DNA from: Escherichia coli
Lineage (GTDB): Bacteria > Pseudomonadota > Gammaproteobacteria > Enterobacterales > Enterobacteriaceae
Assembly (NCBI RefSeq): GCF_044324785.1
Contig: NZ_CP172127.1
DNA: 64,000 nucleotides
Strand: one strand, 5' to 3'
In this document: positions 2,763-50,445 of the stretch, one piece after another
Numbering within the stretch: position 1 is the first letter of the stretch
Layout: every line of letters begins with the position of its first letter
Notes under the pieces: generated by a model
The model's input: only the letters and a program-made list of their open reading frames with translations
The model's database searches: none
What the model was told of the DNA's origin: nothing
Program-made: the position numbers and the translations under genes

Positions 2763-3854
2763 ATGCGTTTTCTGCGCAGACCAATATCGCTGCGCCAACG
2801 GCTGATATTGACCATCGGGGCCATTTTGTTGGTGTTTGAGCTGATCAGCGTCTTCTGGCTATGGCATGAAAGTACCGAGCAGATTCAGCTGTTTGAGCAG
2901 GCGCTACGCGACAATCGCAACAACGATCGCCACATCATGCGTGAGATCCGCGAGGCGGTCGCCAGCCTGATTGTCCCCGGCGTCTTTATGGTCAGCCTGA
3001 CGCTATTTATCTGCTATCAGGCGGTACGCCGCATCACCCGGCCGCTGGCGGAGCTGCAAAAAGAGCTGGAAGCGCGCACCGCCGACAATTTAACGCCTAT
3101 TGCCATTCACAGTGCCACCCTCGAAATCGAAGCGGTGGTTTCGGCGTTAAACGATCTGGTCAGTCGCCTGACCAGCACGCTGGATAACGAAAGGTTGTTT
3201 ACCGCTGACGTCGCGCACGAACTGCGAACGCCACTGGCGGGGGTGCGTTTGCATCTGGAACTGCTGGCGAAAACGCATCACATTGATGTAGCACCGTTAG
3301 TGGCACGGCTTGATCAGATGATGGAGAGTGTCTCCCAGCTACTGCAACTGGCGCGTGCCGGACAGTCATTTTCTTCCGGGAATTATCAACATGTAAAACT
3401 GCTGGAAGATGTCATTCTCCCCTCGTATGACGAACTCAGTACCATGCTCGACCAGCGCCAGCAAACCCTGCTATTGCCAGAGAGCGCCGCCGACATCACC
3501 GTTCAGGGTGATGCAACCCTGCTGCGGATGTTATTGCGAAACCTGGTAGAAAATGCCCATCGTTACAGCCCGCAAGGCAGCAACATTATGATTAAGCTGC
3601 AAGAAGATGGCGGAGCGGTCATGGCCGTTGAAGATGAAGGACCGGGTATTGATGAGAGTAAATGCGGGGAGTTGAGTAAAGCGTTTGTACGTATGGACAG
3701 CCGTTATGGCGGGATTGGTCTGGGGTTAAGTATTGTCAGCCGCATTACACAGTTGCATCACGGGCAGTTTTTCCTGCAAAACCGGCAAGAAACTTCCGGC
3801 ACGCGGGCCTGGGTACGGCTGAAGAAAGATCAGAACGTGGCAAACCAGATATAA
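2763..3854 (+). CDS. basS: Sensor histidine kinase BasS (PmrB)
   Basis: 363 aa from ATG 2763; TM segments, H-box ADVAHELRTPL, ATPase G-boxes. Confidence 0.9.
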   Translation: MRFLRRPISLRQRLILTIGAILLVFELISVFWLWHESTEQIQLFEQALRDNRNNDRHIMREIREAVASLIVPGVFMVSLTLFICYQAVRRITRPLAELQKELEARTADNLTPIAIHSATLEIEAVVSALNDLVSRLTSTLDNERLFTADVAHELRTPLAGVRLHLELLAKTHHIDVAPLVARLDQMMESVSQLLQLARAGQSFSSGNYQHVKLLEDVILPSYDELSTMLDQRQQTLLLPESAADITVQGDATLLRMLLRNLVENAHRYSPQGSNIMIKLQEDGGAVMAVEDEGPGIDESKCGELSKAFVRMDSRYGGIGLGLSIVSRITQLHHGQFFLQNRQETSGTRAWVRLKKDQNVANQI

Positions 3855-3919
3855 AGAAAGCTGCTGACCACCAGCACGCTGAACACGGTAGTTAAACTTT
3901 CATAAACACGGTTTTTCAT
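3830..3919 (-). CDS. pmrR: Small membrane protein PmrR (29 aa), antisense-overlapping the basS 3' end
   Basis: Reverse strand reads atgaaaaaccgtgtttatgaa... = MKNRVYESLTTVFSVLVVSSFLYIWFATF*; below the 60-aa ORF-track cutoff. Confidence 0.7.
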   Translation of the reverse strand: MKNRVYESLTTVFSVLVVSSFLYIWFATF

Positions 3920-3988
3920 TGCACTCTCCTCCGTTAACCTGGAGGAGAGTATGCGCGTCAGAGATTAAGTGAACCTTAAGAGTTCAAT

Positions 3989-9653: not shown

Positions 9654-9735
9654 AAGCCGGATAAGGCGCTCGCGCCGCATCCGGCAACGATGCCGACAGC
9701 CTGATGCGACGCTGACCGCGTCTTATCAGGCTTCC
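9654..9735. repeat. REP/BIME palindromic repeat cluster
   Basis: gccggataaggcgctcgcgccgcatccggca ... gcgacgctgaccgcgtcttatcaggc. Confidence 0.8.
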
Positions 9736-12202: not shown

Positions 12203-12209
12203 ATCGTAA

Positions 12210-12295
12210 GTCGGATAAGACGCCACGGCGTCGCATCCGACAATGTGCAGACGTTGATGCCGGATGCGGTGCAAGCACCTTATCCGGCCTACAGA
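12210..12295. repeat. REP/BIME palindromic repeats inside the phn operon (phnD-phnE spacer)
   Basis: gtcggataagacgccacggcgtcgcatccgaca ... gccggatgcggtgcaagcaccttatccggcc. Confidence 0.8.
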
Positions 12296-29181: not shown

Positions 29182-29204
29182 AATGTCTGCCGCGTGATGG
29201 CTGT

Positions 29205-29270
29205 CACGCGGTATTTCGTTTCGTCACGTCAAAACTGACGACAGCCTGTTTTTCGTCAGAGTTTTGAATA
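29205..29270 (+). promoter_or_regulatory. Putative FhlA upstream activating sequences for fdhF
   Basis: Repeated tcgtcacg / gtcaaaactgacg / ttcgtcag motifs about 100 bp upstream of the sigma54 element. Confidence 0.45.
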
Positions 29271-29311
29271 AATAGTGCCCGTAATATCAGGGAATGCCCC
29301 CAAATAAAATG

Positions 29312-29327
29312 TGGCATAAAAGATGCA
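29312..29327 (+). promoter_or_regulatory. Sigma-54 (-24/-12) promoter of fdhF
   Basis: TGGCATaaaagaTGCAT with GG...GC spacing matching the TGGCAC-N5-TTGC consensus, about 50 bp upstream of the ATG. Confidence 0.7.
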
Positions 29328-29378
29328 TACTGTAGTCGAGAGCGCGTATGCGTGATTTGATTAACTGGAGCGAGACCG

Positions 29379-31526
29379 ATGAAAAAAGTCGTCACGGTTT
29401 GCCCCTATTGCGCATCAGGTTGCAAAATCAACCTGGTCGTCGATAACGGCAAAATCGTCCGGGCGGAGGCAGCGCAGGGGAAAACCAACCAGGGTACCCT
29501 GTGTCTGAAGGGTTATTATGGCTGGGATTTCATTAACGATACCCAGATCCTGACCCCGCGCCTGAAAACCCCCATGATCCGTCGCCAGCGTGGCGGCAAA
29601 CTCGAACCTGTTTCCTGGGATGAGGCACTGAATTACGTTGCCGAGCGCCTGAGCGCCATCAAAGAGAAGTACGGTCCGGATGCCATCCAGACGACCGGCT
29701 CCTCGCGTGGTACGGGTAACGAAACCAACTATGTAATGCAAAAATTTGCGCGCGCCGTTATTGGTACCAATAACGTTGACTGCTGCGCTCGTGTCTGACA
29801 CGGCCCATCGGTTGCAGGTCTGCACCAATCGGTCGGTAATGGCGCAATGAGCAATGCTATTAACGAAATTGATAATACCGATTTAGTGTTCGTTTTCGGG
29901 TACAACCCGGCGGATTCCCACCCAATCGTGGCGAACCACGTAATTAACGCTAAACGTAACGGGGCGAAAATTATCGTCTGCGATCCGCGCAAAATTGAAA
30001 CCGCGCGCATTGCTGACATGCACATTGCACTGAAAAACGGCTCGAACATCGCGCTGTTGAATGCGATGGGTCATGTCATTATTGAAGAAAACCTGTACGA
30101 CAAAGCTTTCGTCGCTTCCCGTACAGAAGGCTTTGAAGAGTATCGTAAAATCGTTGAAGGCTACACGCCGGAGTCGGTTGAAGATATCACCGGCGTCAGC
30201 GCCAGTGAGATTCGTCAGGCGGCGCGGATGTATGCCCAGGCGAAAAGCGCCGCCATCCTGTGGGGCATGGGTGTAACCCAGTTCTACCAGGGCGTGGAAA
30301 CCGTGCGTTCTCTGACCAGCCTCGCGATGCTGACTGGTAACCTCGGTAAGCCGCATGCGGGTGTAAACCCGGTTCGTGGTCAGAACAACGTGCAGGGTGC
30401 CTGCGATATGGGCGCGCTGCCGGATACGTATCCGGGATACCAGTACGTGAAAGATCCGGCTAACCGCGAGAAATTCGCCAAAGCCTGGGGCGTGGAAAAC
30501 CTGCCTGCTCATACCGGCTATCGCATCAGCGAGCTGCCGCACCGCGCAGCGCATGGCGAAGTGCGTGCCGCGTACATTATGGGCGAAGATCCGCTGCAAA
30601 CTGACGCGGAGCTGTCGGCAGTACGTAAAGCCTTTGAAGATCTGGAACTGGTCATCGTTCAGGACATCTTTATGACCAAAACCGCGTCGGCTGCGGATGT
30701 TATTTTACCATCAACGTCGTGGGGCGAGCATGAAGGCGTGTTTACTGCGGCTGACCGTGGCTTCCAGCGTTTCTTCAAGGCGGTTGAACCGAAGTGGGAT
30801 CTGAAAACGGACTGGCAAATCATCAGTGAAATTGCCACTCGTATGGGTTATCCGATGCACTACAACAACACCCAGGAGATCTGGGATGAGTTGCGTCATC
30901 TGTGCCCGGATTTCTACGGTGCGACTTACGAGAAAATGGGCGAACTGGGCTTCATTCAGTGGCCTTGCCGCGATACTTCAGATGCCGATCAGGGGACTTC
31001 TTATCTGTTTAAAGAGAAGTTTGATACCCCGAACGGTCTGGCGCAGTTCTTCACCTGCGACTGGGTAGCGCCAATCGACAAACTCACCGACGAGTACCCG
31101 ATGGTACTGTCAACGGTGCGTGAAGTTGGTCACTACTCTTGCCGTTCGATGACCGGTAACTGTGCGGCACTGGCGGCGCTGGCTGATGAACCTGGCTACG
31201 CACAAATCAATACCGAAGACGCCAAACGTCTGGGTATTGAAGATGAGGCATTGGTTTGGGTGCACTCGCGTAAAGGCAAAATTATCACCCGTGCGCAGGT
31301 CAGCGATCGTCCGAACAAAGGGGCGATTTACATGACCTACCAGTGGTGGATTGGTGCCTGTAACGAGCTGGTTACCGAAAACTTAAGCCCGATTACGAAA
31401 ACGCCGGAATACAAATACTGCGCCGTGCGCGTCGAGCCGATCGCCGATCAGCGCGCCGCCGAGCAGTACGTGATTGACGAGTACAACAAGTTGAAAACTC
31501 GCCTGCGCGAAGCGGCACTGGCGTAA
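29379..31526 (+). CDS. fdhF: Formate dehydrogenase H (selenocysteine-containing molybdoenzyme); in-frame UGA at 29796..29798 encodes Sec
   Basis: ORFs 29379..29798 and 29847..31526 share one frame, separated only by one TGA; N-terminal 4Fe-4S Cys motif CPYCASGC; combined 715 aa. Confidence 0.92.
29796..29845 (+). other. SECIS element (SelB-binding mRNA hairpin) directly 3' of the Sec UGA
   Basis: tgacacggcccatcggttgcaggtctgcaccaatcggtcggtaatggcg, matching my recollection of the E. coli fdhF SECIS. Confidence 0.85.
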
Positions 31527-31534
31527 TACAGTCC

Positions 31535-31565
31535 TTTCTACAGCCTCCTTCCGGAGGCTGTTTTT
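31535..31565 (+). terminator. Rho-independent terminator after fdhF
   Basis: cagcctccttccggaggctg hairpin followed by ttttttt. Confidence 0.85.
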
Positions 31566-31619
31566 TTATCCATTCGAACTCTTTATACTGGTTACTCCCT
31601 ACCCAATCGTATTATCAAA

Positions 31620-32310: not shown

Positions 32311-32383
32311 GTAGGCCTGATAAGACGCGTTAAGCGTCGCATCAGGCATCCACACATTGCCGGGTGGATATCCCCGGCAATCT
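32311..32383. repeat. REP/BIME palindromic repeats between yjcO and gltP
   Basis: aggcctgataagacgcgttaagcgtcgcatcaggc ... gccgggtggatatccccggca. Confidence 0.75.
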
Positions 32384-50010: not shown

Positions 50011-50254
50011 AGATTGCAGCGTTATCGAGCCGTATACCGTTCTGGATTGCGATAAAAAATCGTCTGAGATGACAAAAATATTGCGGCTAAAAAGTATACT
50101 TTTACACTGGCGAAGAAACGTCGGTGACATACAATTAAAGCATCAACACCAACCGGAACCTCCACCACGTGCTCGAATGAGGTGTGTTGACGTCGGGGGA
50201 AACCCTCCTGTGTACCAGCGGGATAGAGAGAAAGACAAAGACCGGAAAACAAAC

Positions 50255-50290
50255 TAAAGCGCCCTTGTGGCGCTTTAGTTTTGTGTTTGC
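50255..50290. terminator. Perfect 13-bp-stem hairpin with flanking T/A runs (bidirectional terminator-like)
   Basis: aaactaaagcgcc-cttgt-ggcgctttagttt; a partial second copy of the right arm occurs at 50418..50445. Confidence 0.6.
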
Positions 50291-50299
50291 GGATAATTC

Positions 50300-50445
50300 C
50301 AAAAGAGCTCGATCTGTCCCCTCGCCCCTTCGGGGAGAGGGTTAGGGTGAGGGGAACAGGCAGCACCAGTGCAAACATTTACCCTCACCCCGGCCCCATA
50401 GTTAACGATGAGTCAGCTTGTCCTTGTGGCGCTTTAGTTTTGTTC
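50300..50445 (+). ncRNA. sraL: Candidate small RNA SraL/RyjA in the ghxP-soxR spacer, overlapping the soxR 3' end antisense
   Basis: About 140-nt GC-rich segment with two strong hairpins, ending in ccttgtggcgctttagttttgtt; location matches my recollection of ryjA, whose sequence I cannot verify. Confidence 0.4.

Follow-up and report, generated by a model that had tools for sequence, protein, structure and literature searches.

An in-frame UGA codon and its SECIS element in fdhF from a strain of Escherichia coli

Mechanical calling of open reading frames across a 64-kb stretch of Escherichia coli DNA (64,000 nucleotides, hereafter the window) places two neighboring ORFs on the + strand, 29379..29798 (139 amino acids followed by TGA) and 29847..31526 (559 amino acids), raising the question of whether they are two genes, the remains of one gene, or a single gene whose internal UGA is translated. 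The two ORFs share a frame, since their starts lie 468 nucleotides apart (29847-29379 = 468 = 156x3). Translation of 29379..31526 gives 716 codons that include the terminal TAA and exactly one internal stop, the TGA at 29796..29798, which is codon 140. A first-pass annotation of this DNA had described two ORFs in one frame split by this single TGA and a joined product of 715 residues with selenocysteine (U) at residue 140, and translation bears out both statements. We conclude that the locus is almost certainly the intact fdhF gene of an E. coli strain, with UGA 140 read as selenocysteine by means of a downstream SECIS and with expression under sigma54/FhlA control. No observation spoke against this reading, and those checks suggested by the first-pass annotation that could be made all favored it. 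FdhF is a molybdopterin- and selenocysteine-containing enzyme, the formate-oxidizing subunit of the formate hydrogenlyase complex, and its gene is the example on which the study of selenocysteine recoding in bacteria was founded. The recoding of UGA 140 is textbook biology that is already known, and nothing about it here is new. The coding features are:

29379..31526, + strand: coding sequence of fdhF for the 715-residue formate dehydrogenase H, ending in the TAA stop at 31524..31526 (translation, PDB and TIGR01591 matches)
29796..29798, + strand: UGA codon 140 recoded as selenocysteine (sole internal stop; aligned with X140 (Sec) of PDB 1AA6)

The identity of the gene follows from the joined translation. 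The first-pass annotation had expected this product to align to FdhF, and it does so end to end across the TGA: residues 1-715 align to residues 1-715 of the E. coli formate dehydrogenase H structures (PDB 1AA6/1FDO/2IV2) with a score of 1668 bits. The product is identical to 1AA6 at 714/715 residues, the sole difference being S374N, and the internal TGA falls opposite the X (Sec140) in the crystallized chain. The joined protein also matches the NCBIfam model TIGR01591 with 1089 bits, where the cut-off is 666.25. All of the [4Fe-4S] cysteines (C8, C11, C15 and C42) as well as H141 and R333 were found at the positions expected for FdhF; we take the roles of Sec140/His141/Arg333 in the active site and of Cys8/Cys11/Cys15/Cys42 as [4Fe-4S] ligands to be those known from the 1FDO structure. 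The gene order mdtP-fdhF-yjcO agrees with E. coli, with mdtNOP upstream and yjcO and gltP downstream, and across 42 kb the window shares its gene order with strain KE55 (97.7-98.7% identity, colinear). RefSeq annotation already names this gene fdhF in those E. coli records that we inspected.

Translation of the UGA as selenocysteine calls attention to the RNA structure around the codon, in which we distinguish two nested features:

29791..29845, + strand: bacterial SECIS, fdhF type, UGA included (RF01988 match, fold, no difference from K-12)
29810..29826, + strand: apical 17-nucleotide stem-loop GGUUGCAGGUCUGCACC, the minimal SelB-binding element (computed position and sequence, with the literature definition)

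The Rfam covariance model SECIS_2 (RF01988, fdhF type) aligns along its whole length (model positions 1-55 of 55) to 29791..29845 with 87.1 bits (E = 1.4e-18), above the curated Rfam gathering score of 70 that we used as the threshold for membership. The minimum-energy fold of this 55-mer (-19.7 kcal/mol) is exactly the Rfam consensus structure. Its main hairpin spans the 40 nucleotides 29798..29837, beginning with the A of the UGA, and is enclosed by an outer 5-bp helix in which 29791..29795, upstream of the UGA, pairs with 29841..29845. The first-pass annotation had recognized an fdhF stem-loop in the 48 nucleotides directly downstream of the TGA; the element is real, with the extent given there being approximate, as the hairpin ends at 29837 and the outer helix begins at 29791. 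The reading frame stays open through the hairpin, which is translated as residues 141-156.

With the U of the UGA as position +1, the apical stem-loop GGUUGCAGGUCUGCACC covers positions +15..+31 and folds as (((.(((....)))))). Its loop is GGUC, including G23 and U24, and the fold is equally consistent with U17 or U18 as the bulged U. The SelB-binding element has been defined as 17 nucleotides at positions 15-31, located 11 nucleotides from the UGA, with U17, G23 and U24 critical (PMC8659212). The apical stem-loop fits this definition in position and sequence. SelB binding and selenocysteine insertion are known for the identical K-12 sequence (PMC8659212).

The stability of the structure is uninformative. 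Against dinucleotide shuffles, the folding energy of the 50-mer is no better than chance (z = -0.08), and the SECIS 55-mer is equaled or exceeded in stability by 7.9% of the 55-mers in the gene. Because folding energy fails to separate the SECIS from chance, the weight is carried by the covariance-model match and by conservation, and not by RNAfold. The earlier proposal that the downstream segment resembles the bacterial SECIS model holds through the score and the consensus fold. The fdhF case illustrates that RNA folding energy alone would miss a SECIS that a covariance model and conservation at synonymous sites can find.

Conservation was examined within the species and beyond it. Among the 5420 E. 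coli records holding fdhF, 5403 are identical over the 81 nucleotides around the UGA, and the whole 2.6-kb locus is at least 99% identical in only 728 records; we prefer such whole-locus identity bands as the fairer comparison, since our control segment (30060..30140) sat at a known variable spot and overstates the contrast with the SECIS segment. Among the remaining Enterobacterales copies, all 28 with a start codon inside the locus carry TGA at codon 140. About 30 fdhF genes from other Enterobacterales, with protein identities of 69-99.9%, retain both Sec140 and the apical hairpin; the search pattern that retrieved these orthologs fixed 8/17 apical positions, so that divergent hairpins could not be found. 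The apical element is unchanged among the 19 distinct ortholog sequences, including at three synonymous third-codon positions that the pattern left free. Base pairing across these 19 sequences is retained in 93.7% of cells, compared with 22-51% after sliding of the 3' partners. Four SECIS pairs change only from C-G to U-G, and the lower-stem pair A12-U34 is broken in 14/19 sequences. We found no compensatory double changes among the 19 SECIS sequences, in which the apical helix is invariant (with 8/17 apical positions fixed by the search), so the comparative support consists of conservation and single changes compatible with G-U pairing, and not of covariation, which here counts neither for nor against the structure.

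These observations bear directly on the ways in which the locus could be read without selenocysteine. An ORF caller yields two ORFs here and UGA is normally a stop, as would be expected if the TGA were a nonsense mutation that truncated the protein to 139 residues and left the 559-codon ORF as a decaying remnant. However, the TGA and its surroundings are identical in 5403/5420 E. coli records, codon 140 is TGA in 28/28 other Enterobacterales copies, the TGA aligns with Sec140 of a solved enzyme, and a full SECIS lies right after it. In comparison to the K-12 coding sequence there are 22 substitutions, occurring on both sides of the TGA, of which 21 are synonymous and one is nonsynonymous (S374N). 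Downstream of the TGA, 20/21 differences are synonymous, pointing to purifying selection on the whole frame. The pseudogene reading is refuted by this conservation, and we give it practically no credence; the first-pass annotation's preference for programmed recoding over a pseudogene agrees with the excess of synonymous changes and with the retention of the TGA in E. coli and Enterobacterales. No more plausible is a division into two separate genes, one for a 139-residue Fe-S protein (29379..29798) and another for a 559-residue molybdopterin protein, even though the second listed ORF opens with an ATG at 29847. The 16 codons from the TGA to that ATG are in frame and free of stops and match residues 141-156 of the crystallized single chain, the segment before 29847 encodes HGPSVAGLHQSVGNGA, which is conserved in all orthologs, and the homologs, whether solved or annotated, are all one polypeptide.

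The remaining alternative concerns how the UGA is decoded: without the selenocysteine machinery, by a near-cognate tryptophan or cysteine tRNA or by a mis-acylated tRNASec that places cysteine or tryptophan at residue 140, or else mostly as a site of termination. Selenocysteine decoding of UGA is inefficient, with release factor 2 competing and low read-through reported (PMC8659212), so a truncated by-product is expected. Against this stand the conservation of the SelB-binding hairpin down to synonymous sites and the selenocysteine at position 140 of the crystallized enzyme, for which we rely on the PDB naming and established knowledge. The genes selAB and selC are furthermore core genes of the species: taking complete E. 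coli genomes as a species-level proxy, selB and selA are present in 5425/5426 and selC in 5424/5426. Within the 64-kb window, a scan for tRNA genes found none, and hence no selC, and selA and selB likewise lie outside the window. Such decoding is a side reaction within the same system and no true alternative, and as an explanation of the locus we consider it very improbable. The reading that we retain is an intact fdhF whose UGA 140 specifies selenocysteine, and for annotation this means that the two ORFs, which mechanical ORF calling cuts at the UGA, should be joined with no pseudogene flag.

For the expression of the gene, the flanking sequence offers a promoter, a ribosome-binding site and the two transcript boundaries:

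29188..29213, + strand: terminator-like hairpin of mdtP, bounding the fdhF control region on its 5' side (terminator scan: 11-bp stem, T-rich tail)
29311..29327, + strand: sigma54 -24/-12 promoter GTGGCATAAAAGATGCA (identity with the K-12 ChIP-seq motif)
29366..29370, + strand: Shine-Dalgarno sequence TGGAG, 8 nucleotides before the ATG (direct reading)
31540..31568, + strand: fdhF intrinsic terminator, a 9-bp stem ACAGCCTCC/GGAGGCTGT followed by a T run (terminator scan; 14 nucleotides past the TAA)

In K-12, the sigma54 ChIP-seq peak that lies upstream of fdhF (OS41, PMC4591121) covers the motif GTGGCATAAAAGATGCA, which agrees in all 17 letters with the sequence here, and this exact identity with a sigma54-bound site upholds the -24/-12 element of the first-pass annotation. 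Within it, TGGCATAAAAGATGCA at 29312..29327 fits TGGCAC-N5-TTGCA with two mismatches, with the GG and GC doublets at canonical spacing. The bare sigma54 pattern occurs in the window no more often than chance predicts (18 occurrences found, 26.7 expected), so the promoter call rests instead on the identity with the ChIP-seq motif. The core TGGCA-N7-TGCA is kept in 22/29 orthologous upstream regions. In an ortholog from another genus, fdhF of Salmonella Typhimurium (STM4285), the -24/-12 sequence is TGGCATAAAACATGCATA, compared with TGGCATAAAAGATGCATA here, differing at one spacer base; the Salmonella promoter TGGCATAAAACATGCATA is bound by sigma54 and 29-fold sigma54-dependent (PMC3844500). A promoter scan of the + strand upstream of fdhF found no sigma70-like site. 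We infer that transcription starts near 29338, leaving a 5' UTR of about 41 nucleotides. At the Shine-Dalgarno site, AACTGGAGC is conserved across genera.

Between the end of mdtP (29181) with its terminator-like hairpin and the promoter lie two conserved blocks, neither of which is assigned a strand:

29220..29241: conserved block 1, putative FhlA enhancer (UAS) site (K-12 identity and phylogenetic footprint)
29245..29266: conserved block 2, CCTGTTTTTCGTCAGAGTTTTG, putative second FhlA site (K-12 identity and phylogenetic footprint)

Block 1 contains the palindrome CGTCA-AAAC-TGACG at 29227..29240, approximately -111..-98 from the predicted transcription start, and TTCGTCA occurs twice upstream of the gene, at 29220 and 29252. 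The pattern GTCA-N4-TG[AT]C is kept in 21/29 fdhF upstream regions and, in most of the sampled genera, at a fixed 84 nucleotides upstream of the sigma54 motif TGGCA, unlike the distance from promoter to ATG, which varies from 51 to 86 nucleotides across genera. TCGTCA[GT] is kept in 22/29 upstream regions at a constant distance from block 1. FhlA is reported to bind upstream of fdhF (PMC11291172), and its consensus is TG(A/T)C-(A/G)A(A/T)(A/G)AT-G(A/T)CA (PMC7658346). Block 1 matches this consensus at 11/14 positions (29227..29240) and the minus strand of 29245..29258 at 10/14, scores shared by 113 and 540 sites in the window, respectively. These scores are weak and common, so the site call draws on the phylogenetic footprint instead. 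The two blocks at 29220..29266 are described as putative FhlA enhancer sites some 100 bp upstream of the promoter, a placement that suits the enhancer of FhlA. The FhlA-like repeats named in the first-pass annotation are present, as the palindrome and the TTCGTCA pair, and their identity with K-12 and fixed-spacing footprint support them as candidate FhlA-binding sites.

Midway between these blocks and the sigma54 promoter is another block, CCCGTAATATC (29279..29289), conserved in most Enterobacteriaceae fdhF upstream regions. By eye it is a poor match to the IHF consensus. It could be a previously undescribed site where a protein binds or the DNA bends, assisting the FhlA-bound enhancer in looping onto the promoter, a suggestion that we regard as speculative and rather unlikely.

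Together with the literature, these features suggest how the gene would be expressed. Transcription would begin from the sigma54 promoter at 29311..29327, activated by FhlA, an enhancer-binding protein that responds to formate, on the blocks at 29220..29266, a role for FhlA suggested by the identity of the region to K-12 and by its conservation, and would stop at the hairpin and T run of 31540..31568. As a ribosome nears the UGA, the apical hairpin 11 nucleotides downstream would bind the C-terminal domain of SelB (Bock and co-workers; PMC8659212), the specialized elongation factor that would bring GTP and Sec-tRNASec, the latter being the selC product charged through SerS, SelA and SelD. The SelB ternary complex would be tethered at the A site and would therefore outcompete release factor 2, so that selenocysteine is inserted. 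The ribosome would next melt the hairpin and read it as residues 141-156. These insertion steps follow what is already established for the selenocysteine system of E. coli, and the analysis of the locus itself contributes the frame, the alignment with Sec140 and the SECIS match.

Compared with K-12 fdhF (b4079), the differences are at the level of strain polymorphism only. There is no difference in the 55-nucleotide SECIS, in the sigma54 motif or in either upstream block, and the length of the coding sequence and the neighbors mdtP and yjcO are also the same. No substitution in the coding sequence falls between 29529 and 29935, and outside of it there are two upstream (29297 and 29303) and two downstream.

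The SECIS of fdnG/fdoG (RF01989, SECIS_3), which encode the periplasmic formate dehydrogenases N and O, shares the mechanism and a homologous codon context, V-U-H-G-P. As in the fdhF SECIS, the hairpin carries a loop of the GGUC/AGUC type, and its bulged U is equally distant from the UGA; unlike there, the stem reads GGUGGCA...UUGCCCC and the 3' arm is offset by one nucleotide. The protein encoded by the host gene has about 1000 amino acids and is only about 25% identical. Membership in SECIS_3 was considered for the window element and rejected, since its score of 35.8 bits is below the gathering score of 63, and the element is classed as SECIS_2. The same DNA pattern that we used to find fdhF orthologs also recovered about 85 sites of the fdnG/fdoG type, in Burkholderiales, Pseudomonadales and other orders.

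The formate dehydrogenase H gene, fdhF, appears in the list of plus-strand open reading frames as two pieces in the same frame, 29379..29798 (139 aa, ending in TGA) and 29847..31526 (559 aa). Translation of 29379..31526 gives 716 codons ending in TAA, with codon 140 (TGA, 29796..29798) as the sole internal stop, confirming the coordinates, the length of 715 aa and the U at residue 140 proposed in the first-pass annotation. The joined protein, with X at residue 140, aligns across the TGA to E. coli formate dehydrogenase H: residues 1-715 match residues 1-715 (1668 bits), and X140 lies opposite X140 in the PDB chains (1AA6, 1FDI, 1FDO, 2IV2 and 7Z0T). It scores 1089 bits against the NCBIfam equivalog TIGR01591 (formate dehydrogenase subunit alpha; cut-off 666) and has all of the [4Fe-4S] cysteines (8, 11, 15 and 42), His141 and Arg333, whose roles we take to be those established for the FDH-H structure.

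Of 5426 complete E. coli genomes, 5419 contain the 2.6-kb locus, annotated as fdhF between mdtP and yjcO, and a 42-kb stretch of the window is colinear with strain KE55 (97.7-98.7% identity). We therefore identify the window by homology as an E. coli chromosome segment extending from eptA/basRS, through the phn operon, mdtNOP, fdhF, nrf, acs and soxRS, to uvrA. The window contains no tRNA gene; selC therefore lies elsewhere, as the K-12 map leads one to expect. Among the complete genomes, selC was found in 5424 of 5426 and K-12 selB with part of selA in 5425 of 5426.

The Rfam model SECIS_2 (RF01988), over its full length, matches an element at the UGA, 29791..29845 (87.1 bits, gathering score 70, E = 1.4e-18), which comprises the following parts:

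29791..29795 paired with 29841..29845, outer helix of 5 bp
29798 to 29837, main interrupted stem
29810..29826 (+15 to +31 from the U of UGA), apical 17-nt stem-loop GGUUGCAGGUCUGCACC

The apical stem-loop has a single bulged U and the loop GGUC. The minimal SelB-binding element is 17 nt long, spans positions 15-31 and lies 11 nt from the UGA, with U17, G23 and U24 critical (PMC8659212); by position and sequence, 29810..29826 is predicted to be this element. The minimum-energy fold of the 55-mer (-19.7 kcal/mol) is exactly equal to the Rfam consensus structure, bearing out the first-pass recognition of an fdhF SelB-binding stem-loop. The folding check suggested there succeeded in structure and was not decisive in stability: the 50-mer proposed for it is ordinary relative to shuffled sequences (z = -0.08). 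Thermodynamic stability does not separate the element from background, 7.9% of 55-mers inside fdhF being at least as stable. Model match and fold together show a canonical SECIS, with the predicted SelB-binding hairpin at the canonical distance.

At a threshold of at least 99% identity, which at this length means identity, 5403 of 5420 E. coli records carry the same 81 nt around the UGA (29778..29858), and the whole locus reaches this threshold in only 728. Only 75 records match a control 81-mer (30060..30140) exactly, a contrast exaggerated by its having been picked at a variable spot. Across species, a degenerate DNA pattern scanned against one genome per species returned 120 loci, 30 of them fdhF orthologues or paralogues from Enterobacterales (69-99.9% protein identity; genera include Citrobacter, Enterobacter, Kluyvera, Leclercia, Pluralibacter, Serratia, Budvicia and Arsenophonus). 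TGA is codon 140 in all 28 of the Enterobacterales fdhF loci with a start codon inside the locus. Their 55-nt elements comprise 19 distinct sequences, and the variation among them lies exclusively in the lower stem and, outside the apical hairpin, at third-codon positions. The apical 17-mer is the same in all of them, even at +18, +21 and +27, fourfold-degenerate third positions where the pattern imposed no constraint. On the Rfam structure 93.7% of cells are paired, versus 22-51% with the 3' partners slid; the pair changes are four C-G to U-G, and one lower-stem pair is broken in 14 of 19. Because the 17-mer is invariant and no compensatory double change occurs among the 19 sequences, the comparative support for the SECIS is synonymous-site conservation rather than covariation, and it is biased by the search pattern, which preset 8 of the 17 apical positions.

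A frame interrupted by TGA could be read as a pseudogene, as two separate genes in place of a single fdhF, or as a gene whose UGA is read through independently of selenocysteine. The conservation and alignment data count against all three, either ruling them out or leaving them as side reactions, and they support the first-pass reading of programmed recoding. They show an intact fdhF frame, maintained by selection, with UGA at the Sec140 position. By analogy with the established E. coli system, SelB with GTP and Sec-tRNASec would attach to the apical hairpin and bring the tRNA to the UGA, competing there with RF2, after which the hairpin would be unwound and read as residues 141-156. The strain is an ordinary E. 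coli, and its fdhF carries the already known, textbook site of selenocysteine recoding; the sole practical consequence is for annotation, where both ORFs should be joined and fdhF not labelled a pseudogene.

The same pattern also picked up Sec sites, about 85 of them, in formate dehydrogenases of the FdnG/FdoG type (within loci L003-L122 of the scan; for example L003 11072..11105, L016 1007..1040 and L090 11385), proteins of about 1000 aa with about 25% identity to FdhF, from Burkholderiales, Pseudomonadales, Xanthomonadales, Halomonadaceae and Anaeromyxobacter. Their hairpin, GGUGGCAGGUCUUGCCCC, resembles that of fdhF in its GGUC loop and bulged U, but its 3' arm is shifted by one nucleotide. 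The fdnG-type Rfam model, SECIS_3, scored only 35.8 bits on the window element, below its gathering score of 63.

Compared with K-12 MG1655 fdhF (b4079), the fdhF of the window has 22 coding-sequence substitutions, 21 synonymous and none within 29529-29935; the other, S374N (window 30499, codon 374), is the sole amino-acid difference from K-12 and PDB FDH-H. The 197-nt intergenic region differs from K-12 at only two positions, 29297 and 29303. The top match of the 2.6-kb locus among the 5426 genomes is 99.3% identical; the exact allele is therefore absent from that collection.

Transcription of fdhF would be sigma54- and FhlA-dependent and formate-induced, and would end at an intrinsic terminator at 31540..31568. 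The -24/-12 element noted in the first pass is GTGGCATAAAAGATGCA (29311..29327), identical in every base to the motif beneath the ChIP-seq peak of sigma54 ahead of fdhF in K-12 (OS41, tabulated distance 41; PMC4591121). We infer a transcription start near 29338, in agreement with that distance. The counterpart of the element in Salmonella is the sigma54-bound TGGCATAAAACATGCATA; fdhF in that organism is 29-fold sigma54-dependent and is assigned to FhlA (PMC3844500). Scanned as a bare pattern, the sigma54 motif shows no enrichment across the window, and no sigma70-like site was found upstream of fdhF on the plus strand. Alignment of 28 orthologous upstream regions revealed four conserved islands amid diverged sequence:

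29220..29241, TTCG(T/A)CACGTCA-N4-TGACGA
29245..29266, CCTGTTTTTCGTCAG(A/G)GTTTTG
29279..29289, CCCGTAATATC
the -24/-12 element

All three motifs occur together in 20 of 29 upstream sequences. The distance from palindrome start to TGGCA is 84 nt in most sampled genera, and that from promoter to ATG ranges from 51 to 86 nt; the fixed palindrome-promoter spacing fits a face-of-the-helix enhancer. The FhlA-like repeats of the first-pass annotation thus do exist as conserved elements, located where they were expected, and their assignment to FhlA is presumptive: they match 11/14 and 10/14 positions of the FhlA consensus (PMC7658346), scores that are common in the window. According to PMC11291172, FhlA binds upstream of fdhF. 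The CCCGTAATATC block, downstream of the putative FhlA sites and ahead of the sigma54 promoter, is shared by most of the regions upstream of fdhF in Enterobacteriaceae.

Second or divergent fdhF copies in Pluralibacter (L061), Serratia silvae (L074), Enterobacter sp. BIGb0383 (L027) and Budvicia (L050/L104) retain Sec140 and the apical hairpin. Neither the sigma54 motif nor the GTCA-N4-TGAC palindrome occurs upstream of them, which suggests that these copies may be regulated differently.

Rfam also matched other elements in the window:

3823..3988 (-), sRNA STnc630, between basS and proP
9655..9732 (+), REP-derived naRNA4, phn region
12209..12289 (-), REP-derived naRNA4, phn region
32314..32379, REP-like, sub-threshold (44.8 bits vs 59.5), between yjcO and gltP
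50142..50282 (+), sRNA sraL (ryjA), adjoining soxR

Directly past the sraL terminator is inserted a GC-rich repeat element of 137 nt (50285..50421), flanked by a duplicated 22-nt CCTTGTGGCGCTTTAGTTTTGT (50263..50284 and 50422..50443) and absent from strain KE55. It contains ccctcgccccttcggggagagggttagggtgagggg, which resembles the E. coli BoxC repeat. Just 157 of the 5426 E. coli genomes have a match to at least 80% of a 201-nt query spanning the insertion, although parts of the query match at several places, the median being 5 in each genome.
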